Shown: positions 4,433 to 53,997, counted from the first letter of the stretch. The stretch is 64,000 bases of DNA from an uncultured Verrucomicrobiae bacterium (GCA_963746345.1 CAVVAN010000004.1:582063-646062), one strand, 5' to 3'. Numbers and translations: made by a program. The notes: generated by a model from the letters alone, not told the origin.

Positions 4433-5984
4433 ATGAAACTTAAGCGGCAATCGTTGGTTTCCCAAGGTTCACTGCACCGCATATTTGAAGAGGTCAATAA
4501 GTCTTGGAAACAATTTGATTTTCAGGTGGCTATCGAGTTGATGGAACGCGCCAGTCGACTTGACCCGGCAAACGCCGGCCTCCTGTTGGATTTGGGTCGC
4601 ATGTATGGGCTGCGTTATGATTATGCCGCAGCCGGACATTGTTTTGATAAAGCCGTTCGTATCTCACCAAAAAAAATCGAAATGCTCGCCGCAGCCGGTT
4701 TGCAAAGCCGCGATTTTGGTAACTTTCCGATGTCCGAACGTTATTACTTGTTGGCGTCCGAACAAAAAGACGCCACGCCGGAAGTATTTGTTCAATTGGC
4801 AAAACTTTATGAACGTCTTCGCCGGATGGAAGACGCCGCCGATATGGTAGAACGGGCGTTGAAACTTAATAGCGCCTGTCCAGAGGCGTTGCTCACCCGC
4901 GCCCGATTGGAACGACAGAATGGCCGATTGGAAGAAGCTGAAAAACTTATCCGCTCGTTCGTCAATAAATCAAATCCCGATGTTTGGATACATGCCCAGA
5001 CCTGGTATGAACTCGGCGCGATTCTTGATCGTCAGGGGAAATACGACGATGCCTTTGCCGCTTTCGTGCAAGCCAAAGCGCTCTTGCGCCCGAATGCAGA
5101 ACGTCTTCTTGATGAATTAAAAATTGTCCGCAAACGTATCACGGACATGCAGGCCCATATTTCCGCCGAAGCATTGCAACGTTGGTTCGATTGCGCGGCG
5201 GCACTGCGACCGAGTAAGCGATTGGCACTTTTAGGCGGACATCCCCGCTCTGGAACGACCCTGCTGGAGCAAGTTTTGGACTCACATTCAGAACATTGTC
5301 TCGGTGGAAGAAACAACAATTTTTCACGACGAAGGCTATATGCCGCTAACCCGCAGTTTGCCGGACCAACCCATGTTGTCGGTTCTTGAAGGGGCGCAGA
5401 CAAATACATTGCAGCAATCGCGCGCGAACTATTTCCGTTCCGTAGAAAGATTTCTTGGCAAGCCGGTCGGTGAATGTCTGGTGATTGACAAAAATCCATC
5501 GCTGACTTTTTTGATTCCGCTTCTCATCCGAGTATTTCCTGAAATAAAATTTCTCATCGCAGTGCGAGACCCGCGCGATGTGGTTTTGAGTTGTTTCATG
5601 CAGTCTTTGCCGCTCGAACAAGGCAGTTCGGCCTATTTGAGCCTGGAAAGCACCGTTGATGAATACACCGCCATGATGAGTCTATGGCGGACGCTTGCGC
5701 CTTTGATAAAAAATCAATTCCTCGAAGTGCGTTACGAAGACATGGTGAATGATCTGGAATCCGTCGCGCGGCGGACGTTGGATTTTCTTGGCGTTCCGTG
5801 GGATGCGCGCGTGCTGGGATTTGACGAACATGCACGGCAAAAAGTTGTGCGCTCGCCGACCTACGCCGACGTGACCAAACCGGTCTATAAAGGCGCTGTT
5901 GGCCGCTGGCGCAATTACCAGAAATACCTCGAACCGCACTTGGAAAAATTGGCGCCGTTCGTCAAGACTTTCGGATATGAATAA
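4433..5984 (+). pseudogene. TPR-repeat sulfotransferase, paralogue 1 (one frameshift near 5292)
   Basis: ORFs 4433..5389 and 5304..5984 together are colinear with the 514-aa paralogues downstream. The frame switches inside LEQVLDSHSE|IVSVEETTIF, where an extra A is seen in gaac at ~5292. PAPS motifs GGHPRSGTTL and RDPRDVVLS are present. Confidence 0.8.
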
Positions 5985-6018
5985 CTGGCGGAGACGCCGC
6001 AGCGCGCCATTCGAATAA

Positions 6019-6348
6019 TCAATTCAATTCCAGCAGCCATGCGATTTTATCGCGCACGGCCAAAGTTATCCGGGCTTCAAATTGTCCGGCGCGACGTTCC
6101 AGCCGGTGATTTTCAACAGAGGTCAGTCCCTGAACATTTGCCACGCCTTCGTCCGCGCCGGGCAACCAGCGCACGCGCGGCAGCTTCACTTCATAATCAC
6201 CACTGCGAATCTGCGTCGTCAATGGCACGCACACGCATAAGGCGCGTTCCGCGTCCACATCTTCACGAGAGACCACCATCAGCGGACGAAGCTTGCCTTT
6301 CAGTCCCAAATCCACCCAATACACCTCACCAGGCTTTGGATTTGTCAT
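6019..6348 (-). CDS. mazF: MazF/PemK-family type II toxin (mRNA interferase)
   Basis: 109 aa. PGEVYWVDLG...RPLMVVS...VCVPLTT pattern is typical of PemK/MazF. It overlaps the upstream antitoxin gene by 23 nt. Confidence 0.8.
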   Translation of the reverse strand: MTNPKPGEVYWVDLGLKGKLRPLMVVSREDVDAERALCVCVPLTTQIRSGDYEVKLPRVRWLPGADEGVANVQGLTSVENHRLERRAGQFEARITLAVRDKIAWLLELN

Positions 6349-6544
6349 AAAAACTTTCCAGCGTGGCGGCGCGCAGTTCCCAAGCTTCGGCGGGCGATTC
6401 CGTCTTGTCCGGAACGGAGATTTTGGGCGCAGGCATGATCCACCAGCCGCCGCTCTCCATTGTCACCAAATACTTTGCGCCCTTGCGCGTGCCCCGGATG
6501 CAGACGCGGCCCTTGTCATCAGCTTTTACCAAAGTCGTTTCCAT
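6326..6544 (-). CDS. mazE: AbrB/MazE/SpoVT-family antitoxin
   Basis: 72 aa. N-terminal swapped-hairpin-like VKADDKGRVCIRG. Lies immediately upstream of and overlapping the MazF-like gene. Confidence 0.65.
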   Translation of the reverse strand: METTLVKADDKGRVCIRGTRKGAKYLVTMESGGWWIMPAPKISVPDKTESPAEAWELRAATLESFYDKSKAW

Positions 6545-6597
6545 GTGGGAACATTCCCACTTTCAGGAACCATTGTCAACGGCTTAATGATTGAAAA

Positions 6598-6648
6598 GGC
6601 CGGTTCAGCGCGCGGCGCTGACCGGACATCGCAGCGTGACGTCCCTGC
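6598..6648. repeat. REP-like palindromic element, same family as 9852-10075
   Basis: ggccggttcagcgcgcggcgctgaccggacatcgcagcgtgacgtccctgc closely matches unit 2 of the 9852-10075 cluster. Confidence 0.7.
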
Positions 6649-6706
6649 TTCCGGTTTCTTTGCAGAGACTGCTTGTGCAAAAAACATTGGCATCTAAAAT
6701 TACTCC

Positions 6707-8251
6707 ATGAGACGGCTACAGTTGGTTTCCCAAGGTTCTTTGAGCCGCATGATCAAGTCGGCGGATGAATCCTGGGAACGGGGCGACTCGCAGCAATGTT
6801 TTGAGACGTTGGAACGCGCCAGCCGTCTCGACCCGGGCAATCCCAAAATGCAGTTCTATTTGGCCCAGCGTTATGGATTGCATTACAACCACGCCGCAGC
6901 CGAACGTTGCTTTGAACAGGCCGTTCGCATTGCACTGCATAAAACGGAAGCCTTGGAATTTGCCGGACGGCTGTCCCTCGATTTTGGCCGTCATCAAATG
7001 GCCGAGGATTATTTCCGGCGCGCTTTAGAACAAAAAGACGCCTCCGCTGAAACCTTCGCCAGACTCGCGGAACTTTATGAGCGCCTTCATCGCACGGAAG
7101 ATGCCTCCAAACTCGTCGCTCAAGCCTTGCAGTTGGATGACAACTGCGCTTTGGCACAACTCACTCGCGCAAAATTATATCGCCGGGCGGGTCGCCTAGA
7201 AGAAGCAGAAAAAATTCTGCGGTTGTTTCCAACCATAACCGAACGCTATATCCAAGTGCGCCGATTTTACGAATTGGGCGCGAATCTTGATCTTCAAGGA
7301 CGTTATGACAATGCCATGAGCGCGTTTCTTGAAGGCAAGGCGCTATTGCAACCGGATGCGCCGCCATTGCTCGCGCAATTGAAATTGGTTCGCGAACGCT
7401 TGAAGCAGATGCAAAATGACATCACCCCTGAAATGCTTCAACGCTGGCATGATTGCGCCCCGGCGCTGGCACCCGGCCATCGTCTGGCATTTTTGGGTGG
7501 ACATCCCCGTTCCGGCACAACGTTGTTGGAACAAGTTCTGGACTCGCACCCCGACATCGTCTCGGCAGAAGAGACAACAATTTTTAATGATGAAGCCTAT
7601 ATGCCGCTCATGCGCGGCTTGCCACAAAACACATCCTTGCTGTCAGCGCTGGAGGCCGCGCAAACCGGAACATTGCGTCAGGCTCGTAAAAATTACTTTC
7701 GTTCGATGGAAATGCACTTGTGCAATCCCATCGGTCAACGTCTGTTGATTGACAAAAATCCCTCCATTCAATCTTTGATTCTTGCCTTTGTCCGAATCTT
7801 TCCCGAAATAAAACTTTTGGTGGCGTTGCGCGATCCGCGCGATGTGGTCTTAAGTTCGTTCATGCAGGTTTATTTGCCCATCAGCACCGGCAGCGTGTCC
7901 GCGCTGAACCTTGAAGTCGCCGTTGAAAATTATGCCGGCGTCATGGGAATCTGGCAAAAGCTCGCGCCATTGATAAAAAATCCATTTCTTGAAGTGCGTT
8001 ACGAGGACATGGTGAACGATTTGGAATCTGTAGCACGGCGGACATTGGATTTTCTTGGCGCACCGTGGGATGCTCATGTGCTCGGTTTTGACAAACACGC
8101 GCAGCAAAAACTGATGCGCTGCCCGACTTACGCTGACGTGACGCAGCCTGTCTATAAACGCGCCCACGGACGCTGGCACAATTACAAAAAATATCTCGAA
8201 CCACACTTGGCCAAACTGGAGCCATTTATCAAAGCGTTCGGTTATGAATAA
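6707..8251 (+). CDS. TPR-repeat sulfotransferase, paralogue 2
   Basis: Intact 514 aa. N-terminal TPRs, 5'-PSB motif GGHPRSGTTLLEQ, 3'-PB motif RDPRDVVLSSF. Confidence 0.8.
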   Translation: MRRLQLVSQGSLSRMIKSADESWERGDSQQCFETLERASRLDPGNPKMQFYLAQRYGLHYNHAAAERCFEQAVRIALHKTEALEFAGRLSLDFGRHQMAEDYFRRALEQKDASAETFARLAELYERLHRTEDASKLVAQALQLDDNCALAQLTRAKLYRRAGRLEEAEKILRLFPTITERYIQVRRFYELGANLDLQGRYDNAMSAFLEGKALLQPDAPPLLAQLKLVRERLKQMQNDITPEMLQRWHDCAPALAPGHRLAFLGGHPRSGTTLLEQVLDSHPDIVSAEETTIFNDEAYMPLMRGLPQNTSLLSALEAAQTGTLRQARKNYFRSMEMHLCNPIGQRLLIDKNPSIQSLILAFVRIFPEIKLLVALRDPRDVVLSSFMQVYLPISTGSVSALNLEVAVENYAGVMGIWQKLAPLIKNPFLEVRYEDMVNDLESVARRTLDFLGAPWDAHVLGFDKHAQQKLMRCPTYADVTQPVYKRAHGRWHNYKKYLEPHLAKLEPFIKAFGYE

Positions 8252-8281
8252 GGCACATCAAGCACCTAAAACTTTCAAACG

Positions 8282-9826
8282 ATGAAACGTCCACAAATAA
8301 TTTCTTCAGGGTCTCTAAATCGAATGTTGGAAACTGCCGCCAAATCCTGGGAGTCTTACGATTTTCAGCAATGCTTTGAAATAATGGAGCGCGCCAGCCG
8401 TTTGGACCCCGCCAATCCCGGAATCATGCTTCAGTCAGGACGATATTATGGATTGCGCTATGATTACGCCGCCGCGACACAGTGTTTTGACAAGGCGATT
8501 CGCGTTGCCTCAAATAAAACTGAAGTTCTGGCGACTGCTGGGCGGTTGTCCGCTGATTTTTCGAAACCAGAAATAGCACAGGGTTATTTTCAACATGCCT
8601 TGCAACAAAAAGACGCTTCCGCCGAAACCTTCGCCAGATTAGCGGAACTTTACGAACGTCTTCATCGTATGGAAGAGGCATACGGATTAATAAACCAGGC
8701 GTTACGACTGGACGGCAACTGCGCTTTGGCGTTGCTCACTCTTGCGAGATTAGACCGCCGAAAGGGACGACTGGAAGAATCTGAAAAAAATCTCCGTGCA
8801 TTTTTAACAAAGGCTGACAGGCACATCCAGATTCGCGGTTATTACGAATTGGGCGCAAATCTTGACCTTCAAGGACGCTACGATGAAGCTATGACAGCGT
8901 TTTTGGAGGCTAAGGCGATGTTACATTTTGAAGCTCAACCATTGCTAACCAAATTACAAATTGATCGCGTTGTTATAAGGGAGAGGCAAGCCGGATTCAC
9001 GGCCGAAACAATGCAACGCTGGTTTGACTTTGGGTGCCAACTCCAGCCTACCCAACGCCTGGCATTTCTTGGTGGTCATCCACGTTCGGGGACGACGCTT
9101 CTGGAACAAGTATTAGATTCCCACCATGACATTGTTTCAGCCGAGGAGACACGGGTCTTTGTGGACGAAGCGTTCATGCCCCTCAGATCCGGTCTGCCGG
9201 AAGACTCATCGATGTTAGCCATCTTGGAATCGGCACGGGGCAGTGCGTTGCAGCAGTCCCGGGCGAGGTATTTTCGTTTCATTGAAATGAACTTAGAAAA
9301 AGTAATTGGTGGCAGGTTGCTCATCGACAAGAATCCTGCTATAACCCTTTTCATTCCCGCTTTCATCCGAGTTTTCCCCGAAGTAAAAATTCTGATGGCG
9401 TTACGTGATCCGCGGGACGTGGTGGTGAGCTGCTTCATGCAATCCTATGTGCCGGTTGCGCCGGGCAATGTGTCCTATCTAACTCTAGAAAATGCTTGTG
9501 ATGGCTATACGTTTATGATGGGAGGTTGGAGAAAATTTGCGCCGCTGCTTAAAAATCCCTGCCTCGAGATACGCTACGAAGACATGGTCAATGATCTGGA
9601 ATCCGTGGCGCGGCGGACGTTGGAGTTTCTTGGTGTTCCGTGGGATGCGCGCGTGCTGGGATTTGACGAACATGCGCGGCAAAAAGTAGTGCGCTCGCCC
9701 ACATATGCCGACGTGACCAAGGCGGTCTATAAAGGCGCAATTGGCCGCTGGCGCAACTACCAGAAATATCTCGAACCGCATCTGGCCAGACTGGAGCCTT
9801 TTATCAAAGCATTTGGTTATGAATAA
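8282..9826 (+). CDS. TPR-repeat sulfotransferase, paralogue 3
   Basis: Intact 514 aa with the same architecture. The last ~85 aa are nearly identical to paralogue 1. Confidence 0.8.
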   Translation: MKRPQIISSGSLNRMLETAAKSWESYDFQQCFEIMERASRLDPANPGIMLQSGRYYGLRYDYAAATQCFDKAIRVASNKTEVLATAGRLSADFSKPEIAQGYFQHALQQKDASAETFARLAELYERLHRMEEAYGLINQALRLDGNCALALLTLARLDRRKGRLEESEKNLRAFLTKADRHIQIRGYYELGANLDLQGRYDEAMTAFLEAKAMLHFEAQPLLTKLQIDRVVIRERQAGFTAETMQRWFDFGCQLQPTQRLAFLGGHPRSGTTLLEQVLDSHHDIVSAEETRVFVDEAFMPLRSGLPEDSSMLAILESARGSALQQSRARYFRFIEMNLEKVIGGRLLIDKNPAITLFIPAFIRVFPEVKILMALRDPRDVVVSCFMQSYVPVAPGNVSYLTLENACDGYTFMMGGWRKFAPLLKNPCLEIRYEDMVNDLESVARRTLEFLGVPWDARVLGFDEHARQKVVRSPTYADVTKAVYKGAIGRWRNYQKYLEPHLARLEPFIKAFGYE

Positions 9827-9851
9827 CCGGTAGAGACTCGCGCTTTTCGTT

Positions 9852-10075
9852 GGTAGGGACGCCGCGCTGCGGCGTCCGGACATCGCAGCGCGATGTCCCT
9901 ACCTTTGTGTGCCGTCGGCGCATTGTTCCTTTTTTGGCAGGGTCAGCGCGCTGCACTGACCGGACATCCCAGCGGAATGTCCCTACCAAGTTTAACTCCG
10001 ATCCAGACATCGCAGCGCGATGTCCCTACCCGCACCCTGCCATTTGAAGGACGGCGCAGCGCGGCCATCCCTACC
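9852..10075. repeat. cluster of four REP-like palindromic units
   Basis: Units at 9852-9903, 9937-9987, 10003-10030 and 10049-10075 all end in (t/a)(g/t)(t/c)ccctacc. Unit 1 has outer stem ggtagggac/gtccctacc enclosing hairpins gccgc-gct-gcggc and ggacatcgc-agc-gcgatgtcc. Confidence 0.75.
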
Positions 10076-39543: not shown

Positions 39544-41551
39544 ATGCGCGTGTTGACTGAAAGTGGAACAAAGGTTTTGCCGGCCCAATCGTCCGCGCAA
39601 CTCCAATTTCAAACCGAATTTGCAAGGGAATTGGAAGCCGCCATTTTGCGGTCGCAGAAATTTCTTCTCGGCGAACAAAAGCCGGAAGGCTACTGGATCG
39701 GCGAATTGATGGTGGATTCCACGCTCGTTTCGGACATGGTCGCGTATCATCACTGGAACGGCAAAGTGGACCAGCGAATGGCAGCGCAAGGCGGTCAACC
39801 ACATCTTCTCCATGCAATTGCCCGACGGCGGCTGGAACATTTATTACGGCGGCCCGTCGGAAGTCAACGCGACCATCAAGGCCTATCTGGCGCTGAAACT
39901 GGCCGGGGTGTCCGGTGACCGATCCGCGCATGTTGCAGCGCGCGCGAAGTCGCGCTGCAGTCTCGGCGGCGTGCCGCGCATGAACACATTTTCCAAATTG
40001 TATCTCGCGCTGCTCGGACTTGTTTCCGTGGGAATATGTGCCGACCATTCCCTGCGAAGTGATGCTGCATCGGCAAATGGTTTCACGTGAATTTCTGGGA
40101 CATGAGCAACTGGTCGCGCGGCGATGCTCGTGCCGCTGGCCATCATCAACCATTTCAAGCCGACGCGCCCGGTGAAAGTGAATCTGGACGAACTTTATCC
40201 CGACGGCATCCACGAACGCGACCTTGCGCTCGCGCCCGACCCGGAAAAAATTTCGCTGGCGCAATTTTTTCCTGTGGCTGGACCGTCTGCACAAATTCGC
40301 CGAATGGTTCGCCGAGCATAAAATCCATCCGTTCCGCAAAATCGCGCTGAAAAAATGCGAGAACTGGATGCTCGAACGCTTTGAAGGCACCGACGGCCTG
40401 GCCGCGATTTTCCCGGCGATGCTCAATTCGCTCATCGCGTTGAAAGCGCTGGGTTATCCCGACGACCATCCGCAAGTCGTCCGCGCCGCGCATGAGTTGA
40501 AAAAACTGGAGCACGAGACGGAAGATAACGTCCGCATCGAGCCGTGTTTTTCGCCGGTCTGGGACACGGCCATCGTCGCGATTTGCCTGCACGAATCCGG
40601 CATTTCCGAAGACCATCCGCGACTGAAAAAGGCCGCCGAATGGCTGATGGAAAAGGAAATCCGTTTTCGCGGCGACTGGCATTACAAAAATCCGGCGAAC
40701 GTCGAGCCGAGCGGCTGGGTTTTTGAATTCAACAACAAATGGAATCCGGACGTGGACGACACGGCGATGGTGCTGCTCGCGTTGCGGAAAATTCCGACGG
40801 ACAATCCGCAAAAGCGCGACGAATGTTTCCAGCGCGGCTTGAAATGGATGATGACATTTCAATGCAAGGACGGCGGCTGGGCGTCGTTCGACAAGGATTG
40901 CACGAAAAACATTTTGGAAAAAGTTCCGTTCGCCGACCACAACGCCATGCTCGATCCCGAATGCGCCGACATCACCGCGCGCATTCTGGAATTGCTCGGC
41001 TACGAAGATTGGAGCAACGGCCATCCGCAGGTCGAAGAGGCGCTTGCAATTCATCCGCGACGCATCAGGAAGACGACGGCTCGTGGTATGGCCGCTGGGG
41101 CGTGAATTACATTTACGGCACCTGGCAGGTTTTGCGCGGAATGCGCGCGCTGAACCTGGACATGAACGAAGCCTGGCTTCAACGCGGCCGCGCGTGGCTG
41201 GAAAGCGTCCAGCACGAAGACGGCGGCTGGGGCGAACGCTGCAACACTTACGACGATCCGGTTTTCAAAGGCCAGGGGCCCAGCACCGCCTCGCAAACCG
41301 CGTGGGCCGTCATGGGCCTGTGCGCGTTCGACGATCCGGAAAATCCCGCGCTCAAACGCGGCATCGAATATCTTGATGCGCACGCAAAATCCCGACGGCT
41401 CGTGGACGGAACACGAAACGACCGGCACGGGTTTCCCGAAAGTGTTTTATTTGAAATACGACATGTACCGCAACGCCTGGCCGCTGCTCGCGCTGGCGAC
41501 TTATAAAAAAATCTGCGAACGCGCGGCGGCGAAAAACGGCGCGCATCCTTA
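39544..41551 (+). pseudogene. shc: squalene-hopene cyclase (about 8 frameshifts)
   Basis: QW-type repeats (..Q.PDGGWNIYYGG.., QCKDGGWASF, QHEDGGWGE), DxDD motif PDVDDTAMV, C-terminus ..TGTGFPKVFYLKYDMYRNAWPLLALA.. spread over many frames. Confidence 0.9.
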
Positions 41552-43882: not shown

Positions 43883-45124
43883 ATGGAACGATTGCCCGGA
43901 TTCAGAGATTTTTATCCCGAACCGCTCCCGCACAGCCGACACTTGGAGCGCCGACGCGCGCCAATTCATTTTTGACAAATGGCGCGAAACGGCCCGGCGT
44001 TACAATTTCCGCGAATACGACGGCCCGCCGCTCGAACCGCTGGAACTTTTCACCACCAAAAGCGGCGAGGAAATTGTCGGCCAGCTCTACAATTTCACGG
44101 ACAAGGGTGAACGCGCCGTTTCGCTGCGGCCGGAAATGACCCCTACCCTTGCGCGCATGGTCGCCGCGCACGAACGCAATTACAAAAAGCCCATCAAATG
44201 GTTCGCGCTGCCGCAATTGTTCCGCTACGAACGCCAGCAGAAAGGCCGTCTGCGCGAACATTTTCAGTTCAACGCCGATATCATCGGCGAGAGCGATCCG
44301 GCGGCGGACGCGGAACTGATCGCGCTGCTCATTGACACGCTGCGCGCGTTTGGTTTGACTGAACAGGATTTTGTCATCCGCTTGAGCAGCCGCAATGCGT
44401 GGCAGGAATTTTATAAGAGCAAAGCTGCAAGCAGAACTTGGTCGAATACGACTTTTACCAGATCATTGACAAGTTGGAACGCACACCGCCCGCAGAATCT
44501 GGGAAAAAATTATCCGCGCTCGGATTTTCGCTGACGGAGGTAAACGCGTTCATTGAATCGGGCAAGCCGACGGCAGAATTGCAGAGTATTTTAGACAATC
44601 TCGCCGCGCGCGGCCTCGGCGGTTTTGTCAAGATCGATTATCGCGTCATTCGCGGCCTCGCGTATTACACCGGCGTCGTGTTCGAGGCGTTCGATGCGAA
44701 AGGCGAGTTCCGCGCCATCGCGGGCGGCGGACGCTACGACAATCTCGTCAAGCTCATCAGCGGCGGCAAGGTGAACCTGCCCGCGCTCGGCTTCGGCATG
44801 GGCGACGTGGTGCTGCTGGAGATTTTGAAAGCGCGCGGCCTGTTGCCGAAATTCGACGCGAACGTGGACGTTTTTGTTTTGATCGAGGACGAAACCCTCC
44901 GCGCGCCGTCGTTGAAACTCATCCAGGAATTGCGCGCCGCCGGATTTGCCGTCGAGTATCCGCTCACGCCCGCCAAGCCGGACAAACAATTCAAGCGCGC
45001 GCAGGAATTGAAGGCGGCGTTCACGGCCAAAGTGGAAAGCGAATCCTACGTGCGCATCCGCAACTTGAAGACGCGCGATGAAATCGTCGCCGGCTTTGCC
45101 GACGCGGCGAATCATTTGAGGTGA
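43883..45124 (+). pseudogene. hisS: histidyl-tRNA synthetase (at least 2 frameshifts)
   Basis: MERLPGFRDFYPE, ..RPEMTP..AR.., ..FRYERPQ-like FRYERQQKGR.REF.Q.., GGGRYD motif, and the anticodon-binding C-terminus intact in ORF 44438..45124. Confidence 0.9.
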
Positions 45125-46586: not shown

Positions 46587-47256
46587 TTATTTCAACAAAT
46601 CCGGTCGCTGCTTTTCCGTCCGCAACTTCGCCTGTTCGCGCCGCCATTTTTCGATCTCGGCGTGGTTGCCGGACAGCAACACTTCGGGAACTTTCATCCC
46701 GCGAAATTCCGCCGGCCGCGTGTATTGCGGATATTCCAGCAATCCGGCGCTGAACGATTCGTCGCGCGAACTTTCGTCGTCGCCCAAAACTCCGGGCAGC
46801 AGCCGCGTGACCGCGTCAATCACCACCATCGCCGGCAGCGCGCCGTTCGTCAGCACATAATCGCCGATGGACAATTCGTCGTCGGCCAGCGCCTCGCGCA
46901 CGCGCTCGTCAAAACCTTCGTAACTGCCGCAGACCAGCAGCAAATCTTTTTCCTGCGCCAGTTCGCGCGCAATTTCCTGCGTAAAATTTTCGTCCGCTGG
47001 GCGAAAGCAAAATCACTTTCGTCTTTTCGCGCTGCAAACTTTCAATCGCTTCAAAGAGCGGCTCGACTTTCAGCAACATTCCCGGCCCGCCGCCGAACGG
47101 CCGGTCATCCACGGTCTTGTGCCGGTCGTGCGTCCAGTCGCGCAGGTTGTGGATTTTCAGATCCAGCAACCTGGCCTCGCGCGCGCGCTTGACGATGCTT
47201 TCATCGAGCGGCCCGGCGAACATCGCCGGAAACAAAGTGAGCACGTCAATTTTCAT
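46587..47256 (-). pseudogene. trmD: tRNA (guanine37-N1)-methyltransferase TrmD (1 frameshift near 46985)
   Basis: MKIDVLTLFP.MF.GPL..SI..RA, ..VDDRPFGGGPGM.., then [15 protein letters not shown]...[10 protein letters not shown] in the second ORF. Confidence 0.9.
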
Positions 47257-47331: not shown

Positions 47332-47569
47332 TCAACTTTCTTCCACAATTTCCACCGAGCAACGCAAACCTTTTTTCGCGCTGCCGGCCAAAAGCAAAGA
47401 CCGGATCGCGTTAATCGTCATGCCCTGCCGTCCGATAATTTTGCCCACGTCGCTGCGGATCCAGCCGCAATTCATAAACCGTCATGCCCGCGCGTTCCAC
47501 CGGCGTGACCGTCACCGCGCCGGGATTTTGCACGAGTCCTTTGACGACGTATTCCAGGAACTCCTGCAT
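47332..47569 (-). pseudogene. KH-domain RNA-binding protein, YlqC-like (1 frameshift near 47455)
   Basis: [38 protein letters not shown], then ..VGKIIGRQGMTINAIRSLL..LRCSVEIVEES* in another frame. Confidence 0.8.
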
Positions 47570-47584
47570 GACGCGAAAAAGTTT

Positions 47585-47846
47585 TAAGCCGCCGCCGGAG
47601 CGGGCGCCGCTTTGCCCAATTTCTTGATGAAGCTGGCGACGGTGTCGCTCGGCTGCGCGCCTTTGCTGATCCAGTATTGGGCGCGGTCCAGCTTGAGCGA
47701 GAAATTTCGCCCTTTTTGAGCGGATTGTAAGTGCCGATTTCCTCAATGAACTTGCCATCGCGGGGACTGCGGCCATCGGCCACGACAATGCGGAATGCCG
47801 GCGTGTTTTTCGTGCCGACCCGTTTCATGCGAATTTTTACAGACAT
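47585..47846 (-). pseudogene. rpsP: 30S ribosomal protein S16 (1 frameshift near 47700)
   Basis: [43 protein letters not shown], then [21 protein letters not shown].. in the next frame. Confidence 0.9.
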
Positions 47847-47940: not shown

Positions 47941-48411
47941 TCACAATCTTACAGGCAACTTTTCTTTCCTGCGGTAAAAGTAACTTGCCAATCTAACAAA
48001 ACCAACGGATGCGAGCAAAATCATAGGCAACGTATAAACCACGACAACCATGGGCAAAAGATAAAGTATTTCGGCTGCATCTTGTGATGACGCTACATCC
48101 CTAAATGACAATAAGACAAACAGCATTTCCGTAACAATAATAGTGGCAACAACAGCAAATAATTTACTTCGGACAATTCTTGCAAGGATAAACGACACCA
48201 CACCGATAATAATTGCGCCAACACTCATTTGCGCCATGACTGGAACGGGATTCTGACCATTTCCATCTGTGGACACAAAAAGCACACTCAACGCCGTGCC
48301 CACAAAAATGAGTGTCGCATCTAATAAGATTTCTTTCAGACGAGTCACAGCCGATTCGTATATCAAGTTTGACAAATGCACAACAGCAAATTGAAAACTT
48401 GCAACTTTCAA
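47941..48411 (-). CDS. small polytopic membrane protein of unknown function (start uncertain)
   Basis: 156-aa ORF with ~4 hydrophobic helices, low GC. The annotated TTG start lies inside repeat copy A, so the true start is probably further downstream. Confidence 0.45.
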   Translation of the reverse strand: MKVASFQFAVVHLSNLIYESAVTRLKEILLDATLIFVGTALSVLFVSTDGNGQNPVPVMAQMSVGAIIIGVVSFILARIVRSKLFAVVATIIVTEMLFVLLSFRDVASSQDAAEILYLLPMVVVVYTLPMILLASVGFVRLASYFYRRKEKLPVRL

Positions 48412-48492
48412 CCTTCAACTTGAAACTAAATCCATGAGCAAGCCGTATGAGGAAATCCTCGAAGGCGCGTCGCTGCCGCGTTCCGCGCCGGA
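48391..48492. repeat. direct repeat copy A (102 nt): leader plus first 59 nt of the Uma2 gene
   Basis: Matches 49723-49824 at 101/102 positions. It heads only a 24-codon stub ORF (48434-48508). Confidence 0.95.
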
Positions 48493-48532
48493 TTTAGTTT
48501 GCAAATGATTTAAGCACGCCTATTTTACTTGC

Positions 48533-48721
48533 ATGAGTTCGGTTCAAGAAATTGAAGCTGTCATTCCAAAGCTGTCACGCGCTGAAGTTGAAGAAGTCCG
48601 CGCGTGGATTGATGATTTTCTCGAAGACCAGCTTGAACTCACCGATGAAGTGAAGGCCAGACTCGACCAATCCCGCCGCGAAATTGCCGACGGCAATTAC
48701 ACGACTCGCCAGCCGAAATAA
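48533..48721 (+). CDS. small antitoxin-like protein (addiction-module-component type)
   Basis: 62 aa, acidic. ..IPKLSRAEVEEVRAWIDDFLED.. The stop is 2 nt before the RelE/ParE gene. Confidence 0.6.
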   Translation: MSSVQEIEAVIPKLSRAEVEEVRAWIDDFLEDQLELTDEVKARLDQSRREIADGNYTTRQPK

Positions 48722-48723
48722 TC

Positions 48724-48987
48724 GTGGCTGCCGCGCTCCAAATCTGGTCGCACACCTTTTCAAAATCATTTGACGACTTGCCGTCCGGCGTTCGCGAAAC
48801 CGTGCGGCGCAAGATTGATGAAATGGGGATGCGATTGGAAAATTTTTCGCACCAGCGATTGCAAGGCCGTCCCGAGTTCAAGCTGCGTGTTGGCGATTAT
48901 CGGGTGCTTTACGAATTCGATGCGAAGCTTGGCCGGATTTATCTGCATTACGTCGGCAACCGGCGCGAAATTTACAAACGGGTTTAG
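48724..48987 (+). CDS. RelE/ParE-family toxin
   Basis: 87 aa with GTG start. ..FKLRVGDYRVLYEFDAKLGRIYLHYVGNRREIY. Confidence 0.8.
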   Translation: MAAALQIWSHTFSKSFDDLPSGVRETVRRKIDEMGMRLENFSHQRLQGRPEFKLRVGDYRVLYEFDAKLGRIYLHYVGNRREIYKRV

Positions 48988-48990
48988 TCA

Positions 48991-49040
48991 TTGAAAACTT
49001 GCAACTTTCAACCTTCAACTCGAAACTAAATCCGTGAGCA
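48991..49040. repeat. direct repeat copy B (first 50 nt only)
   Basis: Matches copy A positions 1-50 at 48/50. Lies immediately after the RelE/ParE stop. Confidence 0.9.
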
Positions 49041-49079
49041 ATTTCCTACTTGCCCAAGTCCAATTTGCGGCGAGAATGA

Positions 49080-49358
49080 TTGTTAGTGAAAGCGAACACT
49101 CAAAAACATTTGACCCGCGAGGAATTGCTTCAGCGCATCTGGATTGATCCGGCGCGTTGCTTCGGCAAGCCGTGCATTCGCGGCCATCGCATCTGGGTTT
49201 CGCTGATTTTGGATTTGCTGGCTTCGGGCATGACCGGGCGCGAAATTCTCAAGGATTATCCGCAGCTTGAGCCGGAAGACATCCAGGCCTGCATCGCTTA
49301 CGGCGCGGAAATGTCGCGCGAACGTTACGTGGACGTGCCGCTCGAAGCGCACGCATGA
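49080..49358 (+). CDS. DUF433-family antitoxin-like protein
   Basis: 92 aa. ..IDPARCFGKPCIRGHRIWVSLILDLLASGMT..ILKDYPQLEPEDIQACIAYG. The start could be the GTG at 49086. Confidence 0.75.
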   Translation: MLVKANTQKHLTREELLQRIWIDPARCFGKPCIRGHRIWVSLILDLLASGMTGREILKDYPQLEPEDIQACIAYGAEMSRERYVDVPLEAHA

Positions 49359-49726
49359 ATCTCAAGCTGGATGAAAATCTCGGCGAGCGCGGGCGTCAAA
49401 TTCTTTCTGCCGCCGGCCATGATGTTGAAACAATCGTCAGCCAATCTCTCGAACGCGCCGAAGATTCAAAGCTCATCGAATGTTGCCGTCGCGAAAAGCG
49501 CGCGTTGATTTCGCTCGATTTGGATTTTGCAAATTCGCTGCGCTTTCGTCCGAGCAAATATTCTGGAATCGCAGTGCTGCGTCTGCCGCGCAAACCGTCG
49601 CATGAAGATTTGTTGAACGCCGTCCGCACGCTCGCCGCCGGATTGGAACGCGAAGAATTGGCCGGAAAACTTTGGGTTATTGAATCCGGGAGAATCCGCG
49701 TGTTTCAGGAACAGGAGCGCGATTGA
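49355..49726 (+). CDS. DUF5615-family (PIN-like) putative toxin
   Basis: 123 aa. MNLKLDENLG......L...GHDV.T......AED..L......E.RALISLDLDF. Overlaps the DUF433 gene by 4 nt. Confidence 0.7.
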   Translation: MNLKLDENLGERGRQILSAAGHDVETIVSQSLERAEDSKLIECCRREKRALISLDLDFANSLRFRPSKYSGIAVLRLPRKPSHEDLLNAVRTLAAGLEREELAGKLWVIESGRIRVFQEQERD

Positions 49727-49824
49727 AAACTTGCAACTTTCAACCTTCAACTTGAAACTGAATCCATGAGCAAGCCGTATGAGGAAATCCTCGAAGGCGC
49801 GTCGCTGCCGCGTTCCGCGCCGGA
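49723..49824. repeat. direct repeat copy C (102 nt), heading the intact Uma2 gene
   Basis: See copy A. Starts inside the stop codon of the DUF5615 gene. Confidence 0.95.
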
Positions 49825-50239
49825 CGTGCGGCACGAAATCATCTGCGCCCGGCTGCACGCGGCGATGACGGCGAGCGTGGCAAATCTTTCCACGACGCAA
49901 TTGCTCGCGCCGCGCACCAAAATCCAGGTCTCGCGCTCGACGGCGATCTGCCCCGACCTCGCGCTCGTCACGACGGCAACGCAGAAAATTTTTCTGGCGG
50001 TGGAAATCGTCAATCGCGGCGACCAGCACACCGACACGGTGGTGAAAAAAGAATTCTACGAAAAAATCCGCGTGCCGCGTTTGTGGATGGTTGATCCGCG
50101 CTACGACAACGTGGAGATTTATCACAGCATGGAATTCGGGCTGGCGCTGAAAAATATCCTGGCCGGAAGTGAAGTTCTATCGGAAAAGTTGATTCCAGAA
50201 TTTCAATTTGTCATCGCGGAACTTTTTGCCGCCGGTTGA
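49766..50239 (+). CDS. Uma2-family (DUF820) putative endonuclease
   Basis: 157 aa. ..LAVEIVNRGDQHTDTVVKKEFYEKIRVPRLWMVDPRYDNVEIY.. matches the E..S......D...K...Y...G..E.W.VDP pattern. Confidence 0.7.
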   Translation: MSKPYEEILEGASLPRSAPDVRHEIICARLHAAMTASVANLSTTQLLAPRTKIQVSRSTAICPDLALVTTATQKIFLAVEIVNRGDQHTDTVVKKEFYEKIRVPRLWMVDPRYDNVEIYHSMEFGLALKNILAGSEVLSEKLIPEFQFVIAELFAAG

Positions 50240-50975
50240 ACGCGACCACATCGGCGTATTTCACGTCGCTGCCGCCAAAGATGTCCAGCGCCGAGCCGAT
50301 TGTCAGATTAACTTTCCCCTGCCCCAACTTTGTGACGGTTTCCAAATCCAAAATGGAATTGGCGCCGCCGGCGTAAGTCGTCGGAATCGGCGTCCACTGG
50401 CCGAGTTTTTCTACCAGCTCGCGGTCAATGCCTTTGCACAGACCTTCGACATCCACGGCGTGAATTAAAAACTCCGCACAGAATTCCGAAAATCTTTTCA
50501 GCGTCTCTTCATTCACGACGAGTTCCGTGAATTTCTGCCAGCGATCGGTGACGACGAAATAATTTTCCCCGCGCTTACGACAGCTCAAATCAAGAACCAA
50601 TTTGTCTTTGCCAATCGCTTTGACAAGTTCGCCGAGCCGTTCCCAATTCACACGGCCTTCGCGAAAAACCCAGCTCGTGACGATGACGTGCGACGCGCCA
50701 GCATCAAGCCAATCGCGCGCATTCGCAGAATTGATACCACCGCCGATTTGCAATCCATTTGGAAATGCTGCGAGCGCCGAACGCGCTTCATTTTCATTTC
50801 CCGCGCCGAGCATGATGACGTGGCCGCCAAAAAGTCCGTCGCGTTTGTAAAGTTCCGCGAACCACGCCGCCGGTTTTTCCGAAATAAAATTCGTCCGCAA
50901 AGCCGAATCGCCGAGCGTGCCGCCGACGATTTGCTTCACTTTGCCTTCATGCAAGTCAATGCAGGGACGAAACAT
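50211..50975 (-). CDS. hisA: ProFAR isomerase HisA, eukaryotic His6-type subfamily
   Basis: Intact 254 aa. FRPCIDLHEGKVKQIVGGTL, VIVTSWVF, LVLDLSCRK, EFLIHAVDVEGLCKGID, TYAGGA, GKVNLTIGSALDIFGG, colinear with yeast His6 as I recall it. Confidence 0.8.
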   Translation of the reverse strand: MFRPCIDLHEGKVKQIVGGTLGDSALRTNFISEKPAAWFAELYKRDGLFGGHVIMLGAGNENEARSALAAFPNGLQIGGGINSANARDWLDAGASHVIVTSWVFREGRVNWERLGELVKAIGKDKLVLDLSCRKRGENYFVVTDRWQKFTELVVNEETLKRFSEFCAEFLIHAVDVEGLCKGIDRELVEKLGQWTPIPTTYAGGANSILDLETVTKLGQGKVNLTIGSALDIFGGSDVKYADVVAFNRRQKVPR

Positions 50976-51084: not shown

Positions 51085-53997
51085 ATGCAAATGTCGTTTT
51101 TAAAAAACCGCCGATGGCTGCCAGCGCTCGCGTTGCTGGGCGGTCTCATTTTTTCCGCCGGAGCAAAACCTTATGGATTGAATTCGCGTCCGCAAGCCGG
51201 CGCATTTTTGAACGGCGCGATGCCGGAAACCGCGCCGGCCATTTCCGGCAACTGGTCGGCCGTAGTCGCTTTTCCAAATCTGCTGTTCACCAATTCCGTC
51301 GGCCTCACGTTTGTTCCTGAATCCACAATCAGTTCCAATCAACTTTGCGTCTGGGAACGCGAAGGCCGAATCTGGACGTTTGAAAATTCTTCCAACGCCG
51401 CGCAAAAAAAACTTGTTCTCGATTTGCAGCAATCAATGCCAGGGCTGGGACGATTCCGGTTTGCTTGGCGTCGCGTTTCATCCCGGTTTTGCGACGAACC
51501 ATTTCATGTTTGTGTTATTACACCTGGGTCAAGCCCGGCACAGTCGCCGGCTCGCCAACGACGCGGCCAAATCCGACGTTGCCGAACACTTATCACGACC
51601 GCCTCGAACGCTACACTCTCGATGAAAACGGCGTCGCGCATTCCAGACTCCCGAACATTTTGATTGACCAGACTGATCAAACCGTCTGGCATCACGGCGG
51701 CGGGATGTTTTTCCATCCGCAAAATGGATTTCTTTATCTGACCATCGGCGACAATTCCGTTGCCGACAACGACCAGATCATCAACAAAAGCCTTTACTCG
51801 GCGGCGTTTTCCGGATCGATGTGGATTGCCGCGGCGGAAATATCAGCCATCCGATTCCGCGCCAGCCGGTCAACGGGTGTCACGGCAAATTATTTTATTC
51901 CGAACGACAATCCGTTCGTCGGCCAATCGAATGTGCTGGAAGAATTTTTTTGTCTCGGCCTGCGCAGCCCGCATCGCATGACCATTGACCCGCCGACCGG
52001 CAGGATTTTCATCGGCGACGTCGGCGAAAGTTCGCGCGAGGAAATTGATGTGATTGAGCCCGGCGAAAGCGGCCTTGAATTTTCAATGGCCTTATTGCGA
52101 AGGCAATCTCGGCAAAATGAAATCGCCCTACATCGGCATCAGCCGCGGGCCGGTTTTGGATTATCCGCACACCGATGGTCGCGCGGTCATCGGCGGCTAT
52201 GTTTATCGCGGCAAAAAATTCGCGCGCGATCTCGGCGGCAAATATATTTTCGGCGACAACGTTTTTCGCACGGTCTGGGCGATGGACGAAACCGCCACGC
52301 CCGCCAAAAAAAATCTGCTCTGCGTCATGCCCAAAGGCGACGGGCCGAATTCCGGCTCCGATTACACCGGCCTTTCGTCGTTCGGCACGGACGCCGACGG
52401 CGAAATTTATTTCTGCCAGATGAGCAGCATCGGCGGACGAATTTTTACGCTTGCAGCGCGGCGGTCCGCCGCCGCCGAAGTCATCCGATGCCAAAATTGC
52501 TTTCGCAAACCGGCGCGTTCACCGATTTGAAGAATCTTGCGCCGGCAGAAATTTTTGATTCCATACACCGTCAATTCGCCGCTGTGGTCGGACGGCGCGG
52601 TGAAAACGCGCTGGATGGCATTGCCGGCAAATTCAAAAATTAATTTTTCCGCGACCGGCGAATGGAAATTTCCCGACGGCACCGTTTTCGTGAAAAATTT
52701 TTCGCTGCCCGTGGACGACACCAATCCGAAAATTCTGCGCCGCCTCGAAACACGCCTGCTCGTGCGCGACGCGGACGGAAATGTTTATGGCGCGAGCTAC
52801 AAATGGCGCGACGGATATTGAGCGACGCCGATTTGGTCAATGCGGGAATCACCGATGCCGATCAAAATCAAAACCGCCACAGGCACGCGCACGCAAAATT
52901 GGTTTTTTCCCGGACGACAGGATTGTCTGACCTGCCACACGCCGCAATCCGGCGGCGTCCTCGGCGTCAACACCCGCCAGCTCAACGGCGATTTCAAATA
53001 TCCCGACGGCGTCACCGACAATCAATTGCGCGCGCTCAATCACATCCACGTTTTCGATTCGCAACTCGACGAAAATGAAATCCCGCAATTTGAAAAACTC
53101 GTTTCCGTCACGAACACTTCCGCGCCGCTTGAACTGCGCGCGCGTTCTTATTTCGATTCCAACTGCGCGCAATGCCATCGTCCCGGCGGCGTTGAGGCAT
53201 TTTTCGATGCGCGATTTGAAACGCCGTTGAGCCATCAAGGCATCATCAACGGCCCGGTCGAAAATCCGCTCGGCATGGACGGCGCGAAAATTATCGTGCC
53301 CGCCGATTTGACCCGCTCCGTTTTATTTCATCGCATCAACATCGTCGGCGATTTGCAGATGCCGCCGATTGCGCGAAATGTCACCGACCGCGCCGCCGTC
53401 GGCACAATCGCCGCATGGATTAATTCGTTGCCGCCCGCCAATTCGTCGTTGCCGGAAAATTGGACGAACATGGACATCGGCAACGTCGGCGTGAAAGGCG
53501 ACGCCAGTTTTGTGGGCGACAAATTCAACGTCGTCGCCAGCGGCTCGGACATTTGGGAAAACGCCGATTCATTTCATTTTGCCAGCACGACGCTCGACGG
53601 CGACGGCCAAATCGTCGCGCACGTCGCGTCCATGCAATACACCGACCCGTGGGCCAAAGCCGGCGTCATGTTCCGCGAAGACAATTCCGCCGGCGCGAAA
53701 TATGTTTTCATGGCGCTCACCGCGCAAAACGGTTCCATCTATCAATGGCGACCGGCGGCGAACCTCGGCAGCCACAACACCGACGGCGAGTCCGGCATCA
53801 TTCCCAAATGGGTGCGGCTCACGCGCGCGGGCGATTTTTTCACCGGCGAAATTTCCGTGGACGGCGTCAATTGGGAGCGCGTGGATAAAATCTCCGTGCC
53901 GATGAATAAAAAAATTTCCGTCGGCCTCGCCGTTTGCGCGCACAACAACACCGAGTTGAACTCGACGCTGTTTGATAATGTTTCTGTGTCGCCGTGA
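51085..53997 (+). pseudogene. secreted PQQ/sorbosone-dehydrogenase-like beta-propeller, two CxxCH motifs and a ConA-like C-terminal domain (at least 8 frameshifts)
   Basis: Signal peptide, LLGVAFHPGF, HHGGGMFF..DG.LY...GD, GLRSPHRM, GDVG....EEID, CLTCH and CAQCH haem-c motifs. The 385-aa C-terminal ORF is intact. Confidence 0.65.

Follow-up and report, generated by a model that had tools for sequence, protein, structure and literature searches.

Genes and repeats at the Uma2 locus

The locus described here lies in a stretch of 64,000 nucleotides (nt) from an uncultured Verrucomicrobiae bacterium (GCA_963746345.1, CAVVAN010000004.1:582063-646062), which we call the window and whose positions are counted from its first letter. 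Upstream of a gene of the Uma2 family, two small gene pairs predicted to be type II toxin-antitoxin (TA) operons, here TA1 and TA2, follow each other in the same orientation, and each is bracketed by direct copies of the leader and 5' end of the Uma2 gene. According to our analysis, both pairs are insertions, and the same cassettes were found at other genes, mostly between direct repeats of sequence local to those genes. The features of the locus are listed below; loci used for comparison carry numbers with the prefix L.

47941..48411, minus strand: left-flanking open reading frame (ORF) for a hydrophobic protein of 156 amino acids (aa), divergent from the leader; its mechanically assigned start overlaps copy A; no Pfam match
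48390-48492, plus strand: copy A, consisting of the native leader (48390-48433) and 59 nt of Uma2 coding sequence; heads a dead 24-codon stub ORF (48434-48508)
48493..48532, plus strand: 5' end of TA1, with a putative promoter (TTGCAA-16 nt-TATTTT) ending just before the start codon
48533..48721, plus strand: TA1 putative antitoxin, 62 aa, separated from the toxin gene by a 2-nt gap
48724..48987, plus strand: TA1 toxin of the ParE/RelE superfamily, 87 aa (Pfam PF05016 ParE_toxin, E 6.6e-6)
48990-49040, plus strand: copy B, consisting of the leader and 8 nt of coding sequence; right duplicate of TA1 and left duplicate of TA2
49041..49085, plus strand: 5' end of TA2, with a putative promoter (TTGCCC ... 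GAGAAT), homologous to the region 5' of TA2 in L045
49080..49358, plus strand: TA2 putative antitoxin, DUF433 (Pfam PF04255, E 4.6e-26)
49355..49726, plus strand: TA2 putative toxin, DUF5615 (PIN-like), 123 aa (Pfam PF18480, E 4.5e-20)
49722-49824, plus strand: copy C, consisting of the leader and the first 59 nt of the intact Uma2 gene
49766..50239, plus strand: intact Uma2-family gene, 157 aa, PD-(D/E)XK-like putative endonuclease (Pfam PF05685, E 8.3e-14)
50211..50975, minus strand: right-flanking hisA (TIGR02129, E 1.6e-115), convergent with Uma2, whose end it overlaps; synteny kept at all orthologous loci

The three direct copies were recovered by a repeat search and a three-way alignment, and the earlier note on this DNA proved right about their coordinates, about the stub and about the intact Uma2 gene. 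The repeated unit combines a 44-nt leader with the first 59 nt of the Uma2-family gene, and the leader consists of about five phased heptamers of the CAACYTT type (AAACTTG, CAACTTT, CAACCTT, CAACTTG and AAACTAA). A 37-nt core of the unit occurs exactly three times in the 64 kb, where 100 shuffles gave an expectation of 0. Copies A and C show a single difference (A/G at 49760), while copy B shares 51 nt with both of them, carries two mismatches relative to A (T>C at 49021 and ATG>GTG at 49034), and diverges completely past GAGCAA. Since several housekeeping genes of the window look frameshifted, single-base differences between the copies could be sequencing errors. One ParE/RelE pair lies between A and B and one DUF433-DUF5615 pair between B and C, which agrees with the single TA pair per interval that had been claimed and for which Pfam returned ParE_toxin in the first interval and DUF433 and DUF5615 in the second. 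The right-hand copies do begin close to the toxin stops, as was also stated: copy B starts 2 nt past the ParE stop, and copy C overlaps the stop codon of the DUF5615 gene, which lies within an ATTGA common to the start of copy C.

Both pairs are full length in comparison with their homologues, and the inserts measure about 0.5 kb (TA1) and about 0.68 kb (TA2). The genes are small, adjacent and co-directional, each pair includes a known toxin family, and the pairing is kept across many contigs, so that they fit the type II TA definition, with toxicity and neutralization being predicted from these features. The 62-aa protein of TA1 matched no Pfam family and is deemed the antitoxin by virtue of its position and its conserved pairing with the toxin (L058-L067, L068-L072 and L079-L081). 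The TA1 toxin has 942 homologues at E<=1e-10, the best 120 of the 942 being 79-92% identical to it, and the DUF5615 toxin has 1192 homologues. The native C terminus of the latter (...SD*, coded GATTGA) recurs at the unrelated loci L051 and L054. The true start of the TA2 antitoxin is likely the GTG at 49086, judging from the alignment of homologue 5' ends.

The putative promoters are proposed on comparative grounds. The same 40 nt (48493..48532) precede TA1 in L058, and TTTGCAA together with a TTATCTT-like box is kept 5' of TA1 at L068 and L079; a scan of the TA1 upstream region with a strict promoter consensus gave no match. The layout upstream of TA2 is comparable at other TA2 loci. Regarding the neighbors, weak homologues of the 156-aa left-flank ORF occupy the same place in L019 and L040. 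The Uma2 protein of the window is 95.5% identical at the aa level to that of L035 and 70-83% identical to the other orthologues, and an exact-sequence look-up of it returned no record.

Empty and variant sites in relatives

Species-representative genomes (GTDB) were scanned with a 21-nt core of the leader, which yielded 34 loci, and a metagenome scan with a 34-nt leader pattern yielded six further loci (L035-L040); the contexts of close toxin homologues gave additional arrangements (L045-L047 and L058-L067). Empty sites, in which rpsP and hisA enclose a single leader and an intact Uma2 gene, were found at eight to ten orthologous loci of Verrucomicrobiota; eight of these, all from species other than that of the window, are L006, L014, L019, L033, L035, L037, L038 and L040. 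Among these, L006, L014, L019 and L033 retain the full leader, a Uma2 protein with 70-81% aa identity, and the synteny hisA - Uma2 - rpsP - trmD - rplS, and none of the four TA genes is present at these four loci.

Other relatives are singly or differently occupied. Ten contigs from different samples (L058-L067) carry the ParE pair alone 5' of Uma2, between two copies of the leader and coding start. In L058, the pair is enclosed by a 104-nt duplication of the leader and coding start (2161-2264 and 2760-2863, 88% identical), and its left junction is the same as that of the window. L036 harbors the DUF433-DUF5615 pair (95-98% aa identity), followed by a leader and then by a Uma2 gene at only 79% identity. 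At L045-L047, among which is an NCBI genome assembly, the DUF433 pair is preceded by another small gene pair and followed by Uma2, all between rpsP and hisA. Since the site is empty, singly occupied or differently occupied in relatives, a fixed one-off duplication is excluded, and these comparisons support the view that the cassettes are insertions and not a fixed ancestral arrangement. The earlier note had proposed serial acquisition of TA cassettes at the 5' end of Uma2 with duplication of the target, and had named two findings that would speak against it. The proposal is borne out by the empty, TA1-only, TA2-Uma2 and alternative-array sites, and by the fact that each cassette has its own leader-region duplication. 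Neither adverse finding was obtained when looked for: relatives do not share one identical arrangement, and in the scans the full leader was seen at Uma2 orthologues only.

The latter point requires a distinction between the leader and its heptamers. At many of the 34 loci, the 21-nt heptamer core forms one arm of an inverted pair (Verrucomicrobiota, Acidobacteriota and Chloroflexota), while the full 40-nt leader followed by (A/G)TGAGC was found at Uma2 orthologues only, with three copies in the window. The possibility that the full unit is a dispersed repeat was rejected on the strength of these scans, the widespread part being the heptamer core alone. The long inverted heptamer pairs, e.g., caggttgcaggttgcaggttgcg ... 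caacTTGCAACTTTCAACCTTCAACttgcaacc (L001, L004, L012, L018, L025, L027, L031, L034 and others), are intergenic in Verrucomicrobiota, Acidobacteriota, Chloroflexota and some Bacteroidota, and look like a widespread repetitive extragenic palindrome (REP)-like or terminator-like class of 7-nt units.

The 40-nt leader shows 0-2 mismatches across orthologues (L006, L014, L019, L033 and L035-L040) whose proteins are 70-83% identical. This suggests that the conserved heptamer leader is a protein-binding or promoter array under strong constraint, and this constraint may be behind the hot-spot status of the site. In several metagenome contigs, the assembly stops at or within this repeat: the first base of L039 lies 3 nt ahead of the leader, and the right copy is cut short by the contig end in L061 and L062. 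Such breaks would be expected if the repeat or strain variants confuse assemblers, so that arrays of this type may be underrepresented in short-read assemblies.

The same cassettes at other genes

TA1, TA2 and a third cassette, of the YafQ type, were also detected at other genes, and most of them are bracketed by direct repeats of local sequence:

DUF433 pair: 3' end of a miaB-like gene of the radical S-adenosylmethionine type duplicated, 85 nt, 85% identical (L041-L044)
DUF433 pair: 3' end of an aminotransferase gene duplicated, 60 nt, 87% identical (L048-L050)
DUF433 pair: 3' end of a Phd-type antitoxin gene duplicated, 116 nt (L054-L057) or 50-66 nt (L051-L053)
ParE pair: first 23 nt of ispF and 42 nt upstream of it duplicated, 65 nt, 88% identical (L068-L072)
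YafQ-type pair, an unrelated third family: 3' end of purM duplicated, 104 nt (L079)

The comparison with empty sites concerns the Uma2 locus; the miaB-like, aminotransferase and ispF contexts lie outside it. We scored the repeats as the best ungapped match between the two flanks of a cassette. Scores of 17.5-75.5 were obtained in 9 of the 12 contexts of ParE and DUF433 cassettes and of 51.5 for the YafQ pair. At 396 random control positions, the scores averaged 9.7 and their 99th percentile was 14. The length of the duplication varies from about 20-33 nt (L045) to 116 nt.

Two of these contexts show additional structure. The interval between a DUF2127 gene and mnmE in L051-L057 is a second TA hot spot, where a PIN-Phd pair, a lone Phd-type gene, a DUF433-DUF5615 pair and a pair of an 82-aa and a ParE-like protein are accompanied by remnants of genes and by direct repeats nested in one another (116 nt and 49 nt). 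In L079 (3900-4664), the YafQ-type pair lies directly 3' of purM, and the second copy of the purM end keeps the frame and the stop position; a faint similarity to the 3' portion of the Uma2 leader is visible in the 18 nt (actgaaatccttttccac) that separate the toxin stop from the right copy.

Cassette ends and the search for a recombination system

When cassettes are compared across loci, similarity starts a few nt 5' of a -35-like box, which is TTGCAA-16/17 nt-TATTTT in the ParE pair and TTGACA, TTGCAA, TTGCCT or TTGCCC in the DUF433 pair. Between the left repeat and the start codon lie 5 to about 90 nt, and the right cassette end is found 0-340 nt past the toxin stop. The TA2 insert of L054 continues for 287 nt past the toxin, and this extension includes 26 nt that are a relic of a different antitoxin/toxin junction. 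In L045, a fragment of the leader lies 3' of cassette 1, and the 53 nt upstream of this cassette resemble the promoter region of the DUF433 pair. Several right junctions fall in microhomologies that include the toxin stop codon. In the window and in L045, the microhomology is ATTGA, which occurs both at the native end of DUF5615 (GATTGA) and where the native leader begins in empty sites (ATTGAAAAC); the others are TAG(C) at ispF (L068), CAA.AG at the aminotransferase gene (L048), and GATTGA / GATTCTGA in L054. No sequence was found to be conserved at the cassette ends across loci.

An RNA-mediated (retro) insertion was considered in view of the ragged 3' ends and of cassette 1 of L045, which starts 5 nt before its start codon. 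It was rejected, since the putative promoter boxes are conserved and stay with TA1 and TA2 at different loci. A further similarity concerns the spacer of the putative TA1 promoter (48506-48524, AAATGATTTAAGCACGCCT), which matches codons 25-31 of the L040 Uma2 gene (AAATGATTTGCGAACGCCT) at 16/19 positions and at a nearly matching offset. The reading of the copy A stub as an L040-type Uma2 remnant extending to about 48528 was mostly withdrawn, since the 40 nt travel with TA1 in L058, and it is also weakened by the -35 box that is kept upstream of TA1 at other loci; the 16/19 similarity may be due to chance or may be a relic of the original junction.

The statement of the earlier note that no integrase or transposase is present in the 64 kb holds: no integrase, resolvase or transposase family was detected among about 58 window ORFs of >=145 aa in six Pfam scans of the 64 kb. 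Likewise, the gene tables of 11 related locus sets contain no recombinase within 2.5-4 kb of the cassettes. When copies A (both strands), B and C were folded as single-stranded DNA, no consistent hairpin was obtained (z -1.62 to +0.46). The repeat had no Rfam match at E<=1, and a repeat search revealed no inverted repeats at the cassette ends. Phage carriage was considered and rejected on a scan of a viral contig collection with both toxins, which returned no close relative, the lone match being one fragment of 41% identity.

These results bear on the classes of mobile elements that might have been expected. The locus lacks an adjacent intI, an attI and attC-like hairpins. It does not show the constant flanking core of an attachment (att) element either, TA2 being flanked by miaB-like, aminotransferase, Phd or Uma2-leader sequence and TA1 by ispF or Uma2 sequence. 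Terminal inverted repeats, a duplication of fixed length and a transposase, as expected of transposons, insertion sequences and miniature inverted-repeat transposable elements, are all absent, the duplications ranging from about 20-33 to 116 nt. The variable ends and the lack of a hairpin and of inverted repeats argue against a system that recognizes defined cassette ends or an attC/att core. The dedicated att site or integron-like system put forward in the earlier note is accordingly the part of its proposal that we could not uphold: the cassettes are flanked elsewhere by local duplications, lengths and ends vary, no hairpin was seen, and the sequences do not support such a reading.

Exchange between lineages

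Several comparisons suggest an exchange of repeat-flanked cassettes among related genomes, brought about by homologous recombination in or around the repeats. Between the window and L058, the ParE pair is 90.5% identical at the nt level, compared with 79.6% for hisA and 74.1% for Uma2; between the window and L036, the DUF433 pair is 92.6% identical and Uma2 78.5%. The right copy of L058 begins with TTGAAAAC, while the native leader of that lineage and its own left copy begin with GTCAAAAC.

The copies of the window likewise differ in their affinities. The copy A unit (48391-48492) equals that of the empty site L040 except for the final base, and its upstream flank matches as well: the 35 nt 5' of copy A match L040 and L019, and L040 is 96.3% identical to window positions 48355-48490 (BLAST). 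The variants of copy B (C at 49021 and the GTG start) are those of the L036/L039 lineage, while A and C carry local variants. At copy C, the empty site L035 is identical to the window from 49728 to about 49880; identity is then 90-96% up to 50147 and about 80% beyond, which is the level of hisA, and the flank on the rpsP side is about 91% identical. This Uma2 mosaic looks like a recent recombination tract starting in the leader. An allele with the ParE pair and one with the DUF433 pair may have recombined in the leader to give the array of the window; alternatively, two de novo insertions took place in this lineage.

Differences between the two copies of coding repeats were counted in four cases. 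By codon position they are distributed 14/18/32 (p = 0.015), the differing codons comprise 26 synonymous and 26 nonsynonymous changes, and no frameshift or early stop was found in any right-hand copy of these four repeats. The codon-position pattern weakens, without refuting, the idea that the target was duplicated in place and that its dead copy then decayed neutrally.

Origin of the array

We propose, with a probability of roughly 0.58, that the cassettes arose by illegitimate insertion filtered by selection and were then spread and stacked by homologous recombination between leader copies. We infer the joining mechanism, the stacking by homologous recombination and the addiction argument given below from the anatomy and comparisons described above. 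The ancestral locus would have comprised rpsP and the gene for the membrane protein on one side, both transcribed away from the leader, the leader and Uma2 in the opposite direction, and the convergent hisA gene. Two independent type II TA operons would have entered the leader and 5' end of Uma2, each as a minimal unit reaching from just 5' of its own promoter to the stop codon of the toxin. TA1 would have duplicated 102-104 nt (the leader and 59 nt of coding sequence) and TA2 51 nt (the leader and 8 nt). Such a duplication would regenerate the full leader and gene start downstream and leave a dead stub upstream.

No recombinase would be needed for this, as a linear piece of DNA could be joined illegitimately at two short microhomologies, either as foreign DNA is taken up or when replication switches templates. 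Overlapping joins would duplicate the target, leave the end or leader of the host gene intact and survive, while nonoverlapping joins would delete host sequence and be counterselected in gene-dense regions, so that the survivors would show duplications. Once present, the duplicated leader would serve as portable homology through which cassettes could pass from lineage to lineage, and be stacked, by ordinary homologous recombination; in the window, a TA1-bearing and a TA2-bearing allele would have been joined inside copy B. Loss of a cassette through its flanking repeats would free a stable toxin without its antitoxin, so that addiction cargo would be kept between direct repeats and other cargo would be lost.

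Some of our results weigh against this proposal. At least three separate events in the same 100-nt leader region point to a site preference, which lies outside the model. In seven scored contexts (TA1 and TA2 of the window, L045, L041, L048, L058 and L068), the start of the right repeat lies at most about 6 nt from the toxin stop, a boundary that is tighter than random illegitimate joining predicts and is not explained by the model. Three contexts, namely TA2 in L075 and TA1 5' of purM in L079 and L073, have no flanking repeat, which implies that duplication does not always accompany insertion or that it can be lost. Finally, the coding-like differences between repeat copies fit better with one copy having been imported from another lineage than with in-place duplication and decay.

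This last point is accommodated if cassettes that already included 50-100 nt copied from the end of a host gene traveled as small circles or as fragments and entered related genomes at the homologous gene end, by a single RecA-dependent crossover of the Campbell type. The repeat would then be the segment of homology instead of a duplication produced by the insertion. Repeats of 50-116 nt are long enough for homologous recombination, and the copies differ as orthologues do, with a third-position bias, no frameshifts and stops in place; the start of the right copy of L058 is foreign to the leader of its lineage, copy B carries L036-type variants, and the cassettes are more alike between genomes than their flanks. 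As the only route of entry, we nevertheless deem such crossovers unlikely. They leave the first repeat at a new locus unexplained, yet the same cassette occurs at four to five or more unrelated gene ends; the L045 repeat of about 20-33 nt is marginal for RecA; the relics at 3'-side junctions point to ragged linear pieces rather than circles; and we know of no transfer route for a 0.8-kb circle.

The repeated use of one 100-nt region (TA1 at +59, TA2 at +8, and TA2 at about leader nt 21 in L045) could instead reflect site-specific recombination in trans, by an integrase or an integron-like or Xer-like enzyme that is encoded elsewhere and recognizes an att site in the Uma2 leader. The unusual conservation of the leader (0-2 mismatches per 40 nt) and the right junctions set tightly against the toxin stop would suit such an enzyme, and the search for its gene covered 64 kb of the source genome. 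Against this stand insertion points and duplicated lengths that differ from event to event (about 20-33, 51 and 102-104 nt), the presence of the same cassettes elsewhere with repeats of unrelated local sequence, cassette ends without a conserved sequence or flanking inverted repeats, a repeat without hairpin or attC-like symmetry, and the lack of a recombinase in the 64 kb and in the 2.5-4 kb around the cassettes of the 11 locus sets. We consider this explanation improbable to a high degree. A one-off segmental duplication, or an assembly chimera in which TA1 and TA2 strain variants were threaded through the shared leader, is scarcely credible despite the breaks of relatives' contigs at the repeat (L039, L061 and L062) and the apparent frameshift errors of the window, as the former leaves two different gene pairs between the copies unaccounted for, and as to the latter, both halves of the array were recovered separately in assemblies of other samples (TA1 between its two repeats in 10 contigs, the TA2-leader-Uma2 junction in L036), another two-cassette array is present in an NCBI genome and a JGI contig (L045/L046), and the TA1-B-TA2 junction is a 51-nt repeat that ordinary reads can bridge.

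Other features of the window

Housekeeping genes are apparently split or truncated at 46587-47256, 47472-47846, 40224-41105, 44438-45124 and 51465-52643. The trmD gene is found in two overlapping ORFs (46909-47256 and 46587-46943), rpsP runs on in other frames compared with some relatives, and further fragments correspond to squalene-hopene cyclase, hisS and GSDH. The pattern is typical of indel errors in long-read assemblies, or of pseudogenes. Farther away, positions 4433-9826 hold three tandem paralogous genes with TPR and sulfotransferase domains, which are about 78-82% identical over blocks of 300 nt. They are followed by two adjacent 54-nt GC-rich palindromic units (9850-9903 and 9934-9987; TTGGTAGGGACGCCGCGCTGCGGCGTCC...GGACATCGCAGCGCGATGTCCCTACC), 80% identical and 84 nt apart, which look like a pair of hairpin elements 3' of the sulfotransferase genes.

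Relation to known systems and significance

The cassette arrays of chromosomal integrons often carry TA cassettes, e.g., in the Vibrio superintegron. The locus described here resembles them in its small co-directional cassettes split by a repeated element, in its TA cargo and in boundaries close to ORF ends. It differs from them in that intI and attI are absent, the repeat consists of the target's leader and coding start and not of an attC hairpin, the repeat changes with the locus, and the cassettes carry their own putative promoters. Integrative elements that restore a gene end, such as islands that target gene ends or tRNA genes and integrase-less cis-mobilizable elements, require a tyrosine or serine recombinase as well as a fixed attP. 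They have in common with our cassettes the direct repeats of a gene end, with an intact gene on one side and a stub on the other, and the possibility of tandem accretion; here, in contrast, the same cargo is associated with a different gene end at each locus, and no recombinase was found in the window or the related loci. TA hot spots of Escherichia coli, e.g., that of ccdO157 between folA and apaH (PMC7167474, PMC3184786), are similar in being short, repeat-rich intergenic sites between housekeeping genes that are empty or differently occupied in relatives, but the two reports mention no long target duplications or arrays there.

The closest precedent is insertion with long target duplication, which has been described for restriction-modification genes (Nobusato et al. 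2000, Gene 259:99; Furuta, Abe and Kobayashi 2010, PMC2853133; reviewed in PMC3874152). It was defined by a complete addiction module of <20 kb without mobility genes, flanked by repeats of >30 bp that correspond to a single copy in an empty-site genome (PMC2853133). For restriction-modification genes of all types, the flanking repeats spanned 46 to about 420 bp and often extended over gene ends; most examples came from naturally competent species, and the mechanism is unknown (PMC2853133). At the Uma2 locus, the TA inserts of about 0.5 and 0.68 kb lie in a window without integrase or transposase; the repeats measure 102-103 nt (A/C, the first 51 nt of which recur in B), 51 nt (B/C) and 104 nt (L058); and a single copy is present in L035, L040, L019, L014, L006, L033, L037 and L038, which belong to other species and have the same synteny. 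The two phenomena share a small addiction-type unit without a linked mobility gene and long direct repeats of variable length, which often overlap the end of a host gene and align to one copy in an empty-site genome, and in both the mechanism is unknown. The lengths found here are 51-116 nt compared with 46 to about 420 bp, the L045 repeat of about 20-33 nt (19/20 core) falling below the 30-bp limit.

The differences lie in the cargo, which here consists of type II TA operons of three unrelated families; in the stacking of two cassettes at one site to form an array; and in the hosts, here uncultured Verrucomicrobiota of unknown competence for DNA uptake. In addition, the double-strand breakage by restriction enzymes, proposed as the common property, has no obvious counterpart in RelE/ParE-type or PIN-like toxins. 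A 2014 review of restriction-modification and TA systems reports long target duplication for restriction-modification genes only (PMC3874152), and according to a 2020 review the mode of TA integration is unelucidated (PMC7167474). Our own literature search, the coverage of which was incomplete so that an earlier mention is possible, found no description of long target duplication for TA operons. The claim of the earlier note that the arrangement is not a standard described one can thus be kept only in part: the geometry is known from restriction-modification genes (PMC2853133), while the TA cargo and the stacking appear to be new. What appears to be new is the extension to three TA families, the recurrence at gene ends across Verrucomicrobiota loci and the two-cassette array at one leader.

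More speculatively, several unrelated TA families may share with restriction-modification genes a dedicated entry route that would require no cassette recombinase, place its cargo at gene ends or starts with 25-120 nt duplicated, prefer leaders of phased heptamers and build integrase-free arrays; we put this forward tentatively, as a conjecture that is more doubtful than not. The locus and its relatives provide a searchable signature, namely long variable gene-end duplications around minimal promoter-to-stop cassettes with three toxin families, and empty and differently occupied sites are at hand for comparison. The geometry held in common with restriction-modification genes suggests that addiction modules have an entry route, or a selective filter, in common. 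Arrays can apparently form without an integrase, which hints at how TA operons that lack a recombinase of their own may enter genomes, and if the signature holds in a systematic survey, this entry route would become testable.

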